Part shown: positions 29,801 through 32,800 of the stretch, piece by piece
How the letters are laid out: the number at the start of each line of letters is the position of its first letter
How positions within the stretch are numbered: the stretch's first letter is position 1
Origin: Escherichia coli
GTDB taxonomy: Bacteria; Pseudomonadota; Gammaproteobacteria; Enterobacterales; Enterobacteriaceae
Assembly (NCBI RefSeq): GCF_003019035.1
Contig: NZ_CP027447.1
Length of the DNA stretch: 64,000 nt
Reading direction: 5' to 3' (one strand)
Made by a program: the position numbers

Positions 29801-32800
29801 TGGCGCGTTGCAGCGCGTCAGCGTCCCGCACCAGCACGCCAAACTCAGCCGCCCGCCCGACGCCCGAAATAATCGACATCGGCGTCGCCAGCCCCAGCGC
29901 ACACGGACAGGCAATAATCAGCACCGTGGTGGCAATCACCAGGGGATAGACAATCTGCGGTGCCGGACCAAAGAAATACCAGATTGCCGCACTGACAAGC
30001 GCAATCACCACCACTACCGGCACAAATACGGCTGAGATTTTATCCGCCAGCTGACCGATTTCAGGCTTGCTGCTCTGGGCCTGGCGCACCATGCGAATGA
30101 TTCGTGACAGCGTAGTATGGCTGCCGACCGCACTGGCACGAAACAGCACACTGCCGTCCTGTACCACTGTCCCGGCATGGACGCTATCGCCTTCGCCTTT
30201 TTGCTGCGGGATAGGTTCGCCCGTCAGCATCGCTTCATCCAGCCACGCTTCGCCTTGAGTAATCGCACCATCTACCGGCACACGGTCGCCGGTCGTCAGG
30301 CGCAGTAACATACCTGGCTGAACATCTGCCAGCGGCACGTTTTTTTCACCTTCGTCGGTGACCAGGCGCGCCGTCGGTGGGGTTAAATCGAGTAATTTCT
30401 CCAGCGCCTTAGAAGAACGCTGACGTGCGCGCGCTTCCAGCATATGACCGAGATTAATCAGACCGATAATCATCGCACTGGCTTCATAGTAAAGATGCCG
30501 TGCTTCCATCGGGAACCACTGCGGCCACAGGTTGACGCTCATCGAATAGAGCCACGCCACGCCCGTACCCAGCGCCACCAGCGTATCCATCGTCGCCGCA
30601 CCGTTCAGCAGGCTTTTCCATGCGCTGCGGTAAAAATGCCCGCCGGCGAAAACCATTACCGCCAGGGTTATCAGGCCGATAACTAACCACAGGCTGCGGT
30701 TGTCAGCGGTGACCATCATGTTATCGCCGATCATCCCCCAGACCATCACCGGGATACCCACCGCCAGTGCGACAATCGCCTGCCAGCGGAAGCGCTTCAT
30801 CGTAGCGACGGCGGTTTCTTGCTGGCGCTCGCGGCGTTTAGCGTCATCTTCAATCGCTTCCGCGCCGTAGCCCGCTTTTTCCACCGCCTGCACTAAATCT
30901 TGTGGGGAGGCACTGCCCATCACCAGCGCAGTACGCTCCGCCAGGTTTACCCGTGCCTGAGTGACGCCCGGTACGCTTTGCAACGCATTTTGTACGCGGG
31001 TGACACAGCTGGCGCAGCTCATGCCGCTCAGCAGCAACTGCTGGCTGTCATCGTCATCGGCGGTCGCTGCCGGAAGCGCCTCAGAAACCGCTGTCAGTGC
31101 TTCCGACGGGATTGATGACTCCGCCAGCGGTTTAGCCTTTGGGTGGCTTACAGATGCGTCATAACCCGCTTGTTTGATGGTTTCGATCAGCTGTTCTGCA
31201 CTGGCAGTCCCGGTAACGTGCGCTTCAGTGACAGACACATCCGCCTGCTCAACATCCGGGCGCTGTTCGAGACTTTCTTTCACGCGTTTAACGCAGTGAC
31301 CGCAGGACAGGCCGTCCAGGGTCAGGTCGATAGTTTGTGACATAAAACACTCCTTTTAAGACAGTTTTGACTGGCTGTGATAAAGGTTAAACCTTCCAGC
31401 AAGGGGAAGGTCAAGAAATTAATAAACCAGGCGGGTAAAAGTCCGTAAAGATTAAAAAATCGGCTCGATTTGCATCAGGATTAGACATTTATCTCTTTGT
31501 TTTCCTGTAGTTAAGTTGCGGGTGCTAAGTTAAATCAGGATGTCTGAAAATCGGCACCGGGGTGAGGAATTACCTCCCGCATCTATAAAAAGGAGTTAAC
31601 AAAAGATGTTAGATGCAAACAAATTACAGCAGGCAGTGGATCAGGCTTACACCCAATTTCACTCACTTAACGGCGGACAAAATGCCGATTACATTCCCTT
31701 TCTGGCGAATGTACCTGGTCAACTGGCGGCAGTGGCTATCGTGACCAGCGATGGCAACGTCTATAGTGCGGGTGACTGTGATTACCGCTTTGCGCTGGAA
31801 TCCATCTCGAAAGTCTGTACGTTAGCCCTTGCGTTAGAAGATGTCGGCCCGCAGGCGGTACAGGACAAAATTGGCGCTGACCCGACCGGATTGCCCTTTA
31901 ATTCAGTTATCGCCTTAGAGTTGCATGGCGGCAAACCGCTGTCGCCACTGGTAAATGCTGGCGCTATTGCCACCACCAGCCTGATTAACGCTGAAAATGC
32001 CGAACAACGCTGGCAGCGAATTTTACATATCCAACAACAACTGGCTGGTGAGCAGGTAGCGCTCTCTGATGAAGTCAACCAGTCGGAACAAACAACCAAC
32101 TTCCATAACCGGGCCATTGCCTGGCTGCTGTACTCCGCCGGATATCTCTATTGTGATGCAATGGAAGCCTGTGACGTGTACACCCGTCAGTGCTCCACGC
32201 TCATCAATACTGTTGAACTGGCAACGCTTGGCGCGACGCTGGCGGCGGGGGGAGTGAATCCGCTGACGCATAAACGCGTTCTTCAGGCCGACAACGTGCC
32301 GTACATTCTGGCCGAAATGATGATGGAAGGGCTGTATGGTCGCTCCGGTGACTGGGCGTATCGCGTTGGTTTACCGGGCAAAAGCGGTGTAGGTGGCGGT
32401 ATTCTGGCGGTCGTCCCTGGCGTGATGGGAATTGCCGCGTTCTCACCACCGCTGGACGAAGAAGGCAACAGTGTTCGCGGTCAAAAAATGGTGGCATCGG
32501 TCGCTAAGCAACTCGGCTATAACGTGTTTAAGGGCTGATCATGATGAACACGGAAGGTAATAACGGTAACAAACCCCTCGGTCTATGGAACGTCGTTTCC
32601 ATCGGTATTGGGGCAATGGTGGGGGCGGGGATCTTCGCGCTGCTGGGGCAGGCTGCGTTGCTAATGGAAGCCTCGACCTGGGTCGCCTTTGCATTTGGCG
32701 GTATTGTGGCGATGTTTTCCGGTTATGCCTATGCGCGCCTGGGGGCGAGCTATCCCAGCAATGGCGGTATTATCGACTTCTTTCGTCGCGGATTAGGCAA

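Follow-up and report, generated by a model that had tools for sequence, protein, structure and literature searches.

A copA sequence in Escherichia coli that matches the programmed -1 ribosomal frameshift site of K-12, and its conservation across Enterobacterales

The primary report of ribosomal frameshifting in the copA gene of Escherichia coli is reportedly that of Meydan et al. 2017 (Mol Cell 65:207). The -1 frameshifting in this gene is efficient and has good support from ribosome profiling, and Drees et al. 2017 confirmed it independently (PMC9548414). It is stimulated by the slippery sequence, by a pseudoknot and by the nascent chain (PMC7558416), and it yields a product of 70 amino acids, as compared with 834 amino acids for the zero-frame product (PMC5009743). 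The short product, CopA(Z), corresponds to the first metal-binding domain of the two in the pump and is a copper chaperone, to which reviews citing Meydan 2017 ascribe the binding of Cu(I) and either a protection of the cells or the delivery of copper to CopA (PMC6771820, PMC6747150, PMC9470648). Together with dnaX and prfB, copA is counted among the chromosomal genes of E. coli whose frameshifting is well characterised (PMC10861913). The copA frameshift site is therefore not new (Meydan 2017, Drees 2017), the K-12 RefSeq reference already carries it as an annotation, and the first-pass annotation of the DNA studied here was right to present it as known biology. What is said below on the efficiency of the event, on the effect of the nascent chain and on the chaperone function is taken from the literature on K-12-type strains.

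We analysed a stretch of 64,000 nucleotides from E. coli (assembly GCF_003019035.1, contig NZ_CP027447.1), called hereafter the window. The first-pass annotation, made from the sequence alone, had placed a CCCAAAG heptamer at positions 31137..31143, at codons 68-69 of copA, and direct reading finds it there, on the minus strand and correctly phased, the plus strand reading CTTTGGG. The sole long ORF covering these positions in the ORF list is copA (28839..31343, minus strand), whose zero-frame product is the Cu(I)-exporting P1B-type ATPase of 834 amino acids and whose zero frame is uninterrupted. The heptamer starts at CDS nucleotide 201, which is the third base of codon 67, and the slippery sequence C_CCA_AAG is made of this base and of codons 68 and 69; the zero frame reads caC CCA AAG (His67 Pro68 Lys69), that is, the X_XXY_YYZ arrangement. 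Read in the -1 frame from the heptamer, the same stretch gives CCC AAA GGC TAA, with the TAA stop (31132..31134, minus strand) three codons past the slip. This is almost certainly the programmed -1 ribosomal frameshift site of E. coli copA, as judged from the sequence comparisons presented below.

The first of them is the comparison with K-12 MG1655. The identity is unbroken across the heptamer, reaching about 110 nt upstream of it and about 150 nt downstream, and among the 80 nucleotide and 11 amino acid differences found over the whole gene, none falls in CDS nucleotides 200-299. One difference (I38V) is located within the 70-residue product. All of them are strain-level differences lying outside the frameshift cassette of 103 nt, and the two strains share the heptamer, its phase, the -1 stop, the spacer and every nucleotide of the pseudoknot described below. 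The RefSeq record of K-12 carries two CDS features for copA, the 834-residue pump and a CDS in two pieces (511168..511379, YP_009518752.1) described as a "soluble Cu(+) chaperone". The latter measures 212 nt, which is 71 codons minus one base and fits a single -1 shift. It maps to 31132..31343 in the window and its end, 31132, is the last base of the -1 TAA, so that the position proposed in the first-pass annotation coincides to the base with the reported CopA(Z) recoding site. The sequence is also general within the species: the 501 bases from 30900 to 31400 match 5422 of 5426 complete E. coli genomes with 95-100% identity, each time in a gene annotated copA, and 5403 of these 5422 genomes have the 103-nt cassette with an identity of 99% or more. 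The locus is syntenic with that of K-12, with ybaP, ybaQ, glsA and ybaT as neighbours of copA. After ybaT, the window presents a type I secretion system and an Ig-repeat protein of 6925 amino acids, at a place where K-12 has cueR. Upstream of copA, direct reading shows a dyad CCTTCC-N7-GGAAGG (31392..31410, given without strand), presumably the CueR operator within the long-spacer, CueR-regulated copA promoter; a promoter scan restricted to spacers of 16-18 nt found no copA promoter.

Translation with one -1 slip of the region 31132..31343 (minus strand, 212 nt, 71 codons) predicts a protein starting with MSQ and ending with SHPKG, composed of residues M1 to K69 followed by Gly70, thus 70 amino acids, and then the TAA stop. 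The first metal-binding domain, which has the HMA fold and the GLSCGHC copper site, is encoded at 31158..31322 on the minus strand. Searched with Pfam, the 70-residue product matches the HMA family PF00403 with an E value of 8.4e-14 over residues 8-62 and profile positions 3-62 of 62. The slip would take place shortly after the folded domain has ended, the product would thus be the whole domain, and the origin of CopA(Z) from the first metal-binding domain, as the first-pass annotation had it, agrees both with this complete HMA and with the published papers. Its sequence matches in the PDB are CopZ-type chaperones and N-terminal domains of ATPases. The predicted product has the attributes of a CopZ-like chaperone, in that it would be a free protein, would measure about 70 residues and combines a complete HMA fold with a CxxC metal site.

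The heptamer by itself is of little weight. The window contains 6 copies of CCCAAAG for 7.5 expected, no more than chance, and in-frame X_XXY_YYZ heptamers are expected about once per 256 codons. There are two of them in the copA gene of this strain, the second being A_AAA_AAC at 30345..30339, which arises from the substitution S335N relative to K-12. Since the bare motif is not enriched, the significance of the site rests on its context, and the sequence comparisons indicate that this context is made of the identity with K-12, the immediate -1 stop, the pseudoknot, the conservation across genera and the suppressed synonymous variation. The same numbers are what a sceptical reader would put forward to regard the heptamer as a chance X_XXY_YYZ sequence deprived of any recoding role: such heptamers are common, this one is not enriched, a strain-specific one exists in the same gene, and the conservation would then reflect only an amino acid constraint on the linker which follows the first domain. 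This explanation is nevertheless confronted with the fact that frameshifting has been published for the identical sequence (PMC9548414, PMC7558416, PMC5009743), and the comparative data discussed further below make it very improbable.

A different proposal concerns the level at which the slip occurs. If RNA polymerase added or dropped a base at the heptamer, the same -1 product would be obtained by either route, transcriptional or ribosomal. For transcriptional slippage to be productive, a run of some 7 or more A or T is needed, whereas the only homopolymer runs at this place are C3 and A3, and a conserved pseudoknot located 5-6 nt downstream is not a feature of this mechanism. We have rejected transcriptional slippage on account of these runs of only 3 nt, its probability being practically nil, and we keep ribosomal frameshifting as the explanation of the short product.

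The first-pass annotation had suggested looking for a downstream pseudoknot by RNA folding, and the search was positive through the crossing stems themselves, their recovery in related sequences and their covariation. Minimum free energy folding of the 87 nt downstream of the heptamer with ViennaRNA, which cannot score pseudoknots, gave a nested structure that is not unusually stable (z = -0.86) and whose main helix, of 9 bp, pairs GUCGGAAGC with GCUUCCGGC. Because nested folding cannot represent pseudoknots, we used a search for crossing stems with shuffle controls, and it found two crossing 9-bp stems arranged in the H-type order downstream of the heptamer, with a score equalled by only 1 of 1000 dinucleotide-preserving shuffles. 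All arms are on the minus strand. The 5' arm of stem 1, AAACCGCUG, lies at 31125..31133 (found by the stem search with shuffles) and its 3' arm, CAGCGGUUU, at 31085..31093 (found by the crossing-stem search). Within these arms, the conserved core pairs CCGCUG (31125..31130) with CAGCGG (31088..31093), the core pairs being kept in 14-16 of 16 sequences, and an optional inner extension can be formed between CGG (31121..31123) and CUG (31095..31097). The arms of stem 2, GUCGGAAGC at 31099..31107 and GCUUCCGGC at 31069..31077, came out of the crossing-stem search and are also those of the nested minimum free energy helix. At the outer end of stem 1, the last two A-U pairs are not conserved (3 of 16 sequences), hence the conserved spacer measures 5-6 nt; a stem 1 starting at this distance from the heptamer fits, on computational grounds, the short spacers (about 5-9 nt) of frameshift stimulators. 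No Rfam family was found for this element at E <= 1.

How far these elements are conserved was studied on a set of 16 copA 5' regions, which consisted of the window and 15 other Enterobacterales: Citrobacter, Enterobacter, Klebsiella, Cronobacter, Atlantibacter, Pantoea, two Erwinia, Photorhabdus, Yersinia and Providencia, together with four further assemblies. Three of these relatives came from a contig scan with the full-length CopA and the other 12 are the usable loci of a homologue search, in which truncated entries predominated. The full-length scan was dominated by MVGDGIND, a motif universal in P-type ATPases, and its matches were mostly distant pumps; their copA loci served as a negative control and showed no cassette at the end of the first domain, except for scattered A- or T-rich heptamers. 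In the 16 sequences, by comparison, the heptamer is always present and in phase, as CCCAAAG in 13 and as CCCAAAA in 3, and a -1 stop, TAA or TGA, is always found exactly three codons on. The residue preceding the proline differs (His, Phe, Pro or Ser), yet its codon invariably ends with C. In the same way, the two residues following the lysine differ (AK, AN, LD, AD, SE, PE, PD or TE) and are always encoded by xxT AAx or xxT GAx. That the C-ending codon and the -1 stop are kept while the residues vary is difficult to reconcile with a heptamer conserved only through the amino acids of the linker.

The pseudoknot is conserved in a similar manner. A homologous structure was recovered de novo in 13 of the 16 sequences when each was searched separately, with 0-1 of 200 shuffles performing as well, and in these searches the distance from the heptamer is +6 or +7 for the start of stem 1 and +30 to +33 for that of stem 2. 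On the alignment, 81% of the stem cells are paired, versus 23-45% when the partners are slid by 1-3 columns, and both stems present changes on both sides, that is, compensatory changes. For stem 1, CCGCUG/CAGCGG becomes ACGCUG/CAGCGU in Erwinia rhapontici and CCGUUG/CAACGG in Pantoea, and its outer pair is A-U, U-A or G-C depending on the lineage. For stem 2, GGAAGC/GCUUCC is replaced by GGAAUA/UAUUCC in Yersinia and by GGAAC/GUUCC in Photorhabdus. Some of the alignment counts of unpaired cells and of changes on both sides are conservative or artefactual, MAFFT having misaligned the 3' arm of stem 2 in two sequences with a shorter loop (Logan58 and GCA_9408), and they were cross-checked by the per-sequence search.

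The location of the stems within the codons of a conserved peptide (PL..PEALTA..LPA) is a point in favour of the amino acid explanation, and part of the stem conservation could indeed originate at the level of the protein. The synonymous positions are informative in this respect. For the first 330 codons of six genera with collinear proteins (E. coli, Citrobacter, Enterobacter, Klebsiella, Cronobacter and Atlantibacter), we compared the codons used wherever the amino acid is conserved. The bin of codons 67-94 (31062..31145, minus strand) takes in everything from the heptamer to where stem 2 ends. Of the 19 such codons in this bin, 17 are the same in the six genera, versus 35 of 182 elsewhere (Fisher p = 1.3e-9), and the mean pairwise codon difference is 0.06, versus 0.37-0.52 in every other bin. 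The constrained stretch begins at the heptamer, and codon 92, where stem 2 ends, is the last one to be frozen in all six genera. As read from these synonymous sites, the result argues against a protein-level constraint as the whole story and indicates that purifying selection acts at the RNA level on the stretch going from the heptamer to stem 2. This frozen codon choice, together with the compensatory changes in both stems, speaks against a heptamer present by chance and for the programmed frameshift site. No synonymous constraint was seen upstream of codon 67 in the six genera, thus no upstream RNA stimulator was seen, which fits the reported contribution of the nascent peptide.

The conserved downstream structure could mainly serve another purpose, either the production of a short 5' copA transcript limited to the first domain or a translational pause for folding or membrane targeting, frameshifting being then minor for the chaperone pool. 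Two elements favour such a view: the structure is strongly conserved, and the title of Drees et al. 2017 is said to name differential transcript formation along with frameshifting. A transcription terminator at the site was considered and rejected, as the copA strand showed no terminator-like site between 30800 and 31620. Moreover, the conservation of the structure goes together with that of the heptamer and the -1 stop, with a constant spacing of 5-6 nt that corresponds to the geometry of frameshift stimulators, and reviews call the frameshifting efficient (PMC7558416, PMC5009743). We consider it unlikely that frameshifting is the secondary role, even though a short transcript and frameshifting are not mutually exclusive and could coexist. 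Programmed frameshifting is the reading retained in what follows.

The steps by which it may proceed are inferred from the general model of -1 frameshifting. The ribosome would hold a tRNA-Pro on CCA in the P site and a tRNA-Lys on AAG in the A site when the pseudoknot, located 5-6 nt downstream at the mRNA entry channel, resists unwinding and makes it stall. In a fraction of the ribosomes, both tRNAs would re-pair one base back, on CCC and AAA. The slipped ribosomes would then decode GGC and terminate at UAA, releasing the free first metal-binding domain, CopA(Z), whereas those which do not slip would unwind the pseudoknot and synthesize the full pump of 834 amino acids.

The CopAs of Yersinia, Photorhabdus and Providencia have three metal-binding domains, and their cassette is located after the second domain with the heptamer C_CCA_AAA. 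From the sequences, one may tentatively propose, with more doubt than confidence, that the cassette is an ancient module of the Enterobacterales copA and that three-domain CopAs would release a chaperone of about 139 amino acids made of two domains in tandem. No mention of such a two-domain chaperone was found in the literature searched, the scope of which did not include Meydan 2017, and it may already have been noted.

The interest of the site is a matter of annotation rather than of discovery: E. coli has no copZ gene, and would obtain a cytosolic copper chaperone only through recoding. The first-pass annotation had warned that the site might be recorded as an error or a pseudogene. The second part of this concern does not hold, because the zero-frame ORF is uninterrupted and there is no risk of a pseudogene call; the hazard which stands is that the short product is left out. 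For strain FDAARGOS_497, which does not differ from the window in the 501 bases compared, PGAP has annotated the 834-residue CDS only. Automatic annotation gives one product where the curated K-12 record gives both, and the annotation of the strain would be complete if 31132..31343 were entered as a second product, made by ribosomal slippage. The comparative results also bring an independent, computational support to the published pseudoknot, which does not imply that our structure and the published one are identical pair for pair.

Among the known systems, the dnaX gene of E. coli, which produces tau and gamma by slippage on A_AAA_AAG, is a close parallel. Both are chromosomal, non-mobile -1 frameshifts with a nearby -1 stop and a shorter functional protein, and they have in common the Lys codon AAG in the A site and a downstream structure. 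The dnaX frameshift site A_AAA_AAG is itself present in the window, at 13419..13425. Its stimulators are a stem-loop and an upstream Shine-Dalgarno-like element, and an AGGGAG is visible at the dnaX site of the window. In contrast, copA has a pseudoknot in place of the stem-loop, and no RNA-level constraint was seen upstream of its codon 67.

As for the product, the chaperones of the CopZ/Atx1 type, such as the CopZ of Enterococcus hirae and of Bacillus subtilis, are likewise HMA proteins of about 70 residues with a CxxC copper site and a CopA pump as partner. They are encoded separately, and at several of the distant copA loci a separate HMA ORF adjoins copA, whereas the chaperone of E. coli has no gene of its own and would be the first domain of the pump freed by recoding.

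Finally, a -1 frameshift has been proposed for human ATP7B, claimed as an orthologous event in the same paper as copA. Loughran et al. 2022 found this frameshift unsupported, attributing it to a reporter artefact and observing neither a density drop in ribosome profiling nor synonymous-site conservation (PMC9548414). The bacterial copA site differs precisely on this last point: the synonymous-site conservation absent from ATP7B is found in copA, where the signal is detectable by this test alone.

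The frameshift cassette of E. coli copA (slippery heptamer, nearby -1 stop and pseudoknot) was also found in the CopAs of Photorhabdus (locus L005, 1011-1110), Yersinia (L094, 708-800) and Providencia (L093, 774-870), which carry three metal-binding domains and place it after the second of these, at about codon 137. In these genes the heptamer is CCCAAAA, followed three codons on by a TGA in the -1 frame, and the pseudoknot is homologous to that of E. coli copA, with compensatory changes. From the sequences, frameshifting at these sites is predicted to release two domains in tandem as one product of about 139 aa. 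The 5' region of the Providencia rustigianii copA (LR134189.1; L093, 366-1752) is split in public gene calls into a 92-aa HMA ORF (366..644) and a 383-aa ORF (601..1752), which overlap in different frames; a genomic frameshift or an error in sequencing could account for this split, as could a further recoding site upstream of the cassette.

Within the window, copA contains a second in-frame X_XXY_YYZ motif, A_AAA_AAC, at codons 333-335 (30339..30345, minus strand). It arose through the substitution S335N (AGC to AAC) relative to K-12, is common to the window and strain FDAARGOS_497, and is followed by 36 codons in the -1 frame before a stop; no indication of programming was seen at this heptamer.

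The heptamer of the classical tau/gamma -1 frameshift site of dnaX, in-frame A_AAA_AAG, lies at 13419..13425 (plus strand) inside a 643-aa ORF (12136..14067): AGGGAG lies 5' of it, a GC-rich hairpin (CCGGCAGCC...GCGCGGCCGG) lies 3', and the -1 frame after it reads GAG TGA. Both E. coli chromosomal -1 frameshift genes, copA and dnaX, are therefore present in one window. AAAAAAG occurs 16 times in the whole window against 8.3 expected, a count reached in none of 100 shuffles, and dnaX holds three of these copies (13419, 13549 and 13627).

A type I secretion locus (34171..59744, plus strand) lies 3' of ybaT and encodes a TolC-like OEP protein (451 aa), an ABC exporter (720 aa), an HlyD-family protein (391 aa) and a 6925-aa protein (35629..56406) in which numerous Big_13 Ig-like repeats accompany a BapA_N prefix. 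Because K-12 instead has cueR immediately after ybaT and FDAARGOS_497 carries a YadA-family adhesin in this area, the region after ybaT is a variable island.

A separate HMA frame adjoining copA is the usual arrangement for a stand-alone chaperone. Eight copA loci from distant bacteria (L023, L025, L029, L053, L060, L068, L076 and L081) have such a small, separate CopZ-like reading frame directly 3' of copA, at about 2800-3400 of each locus, whereas E. coli lacks this arrangement.
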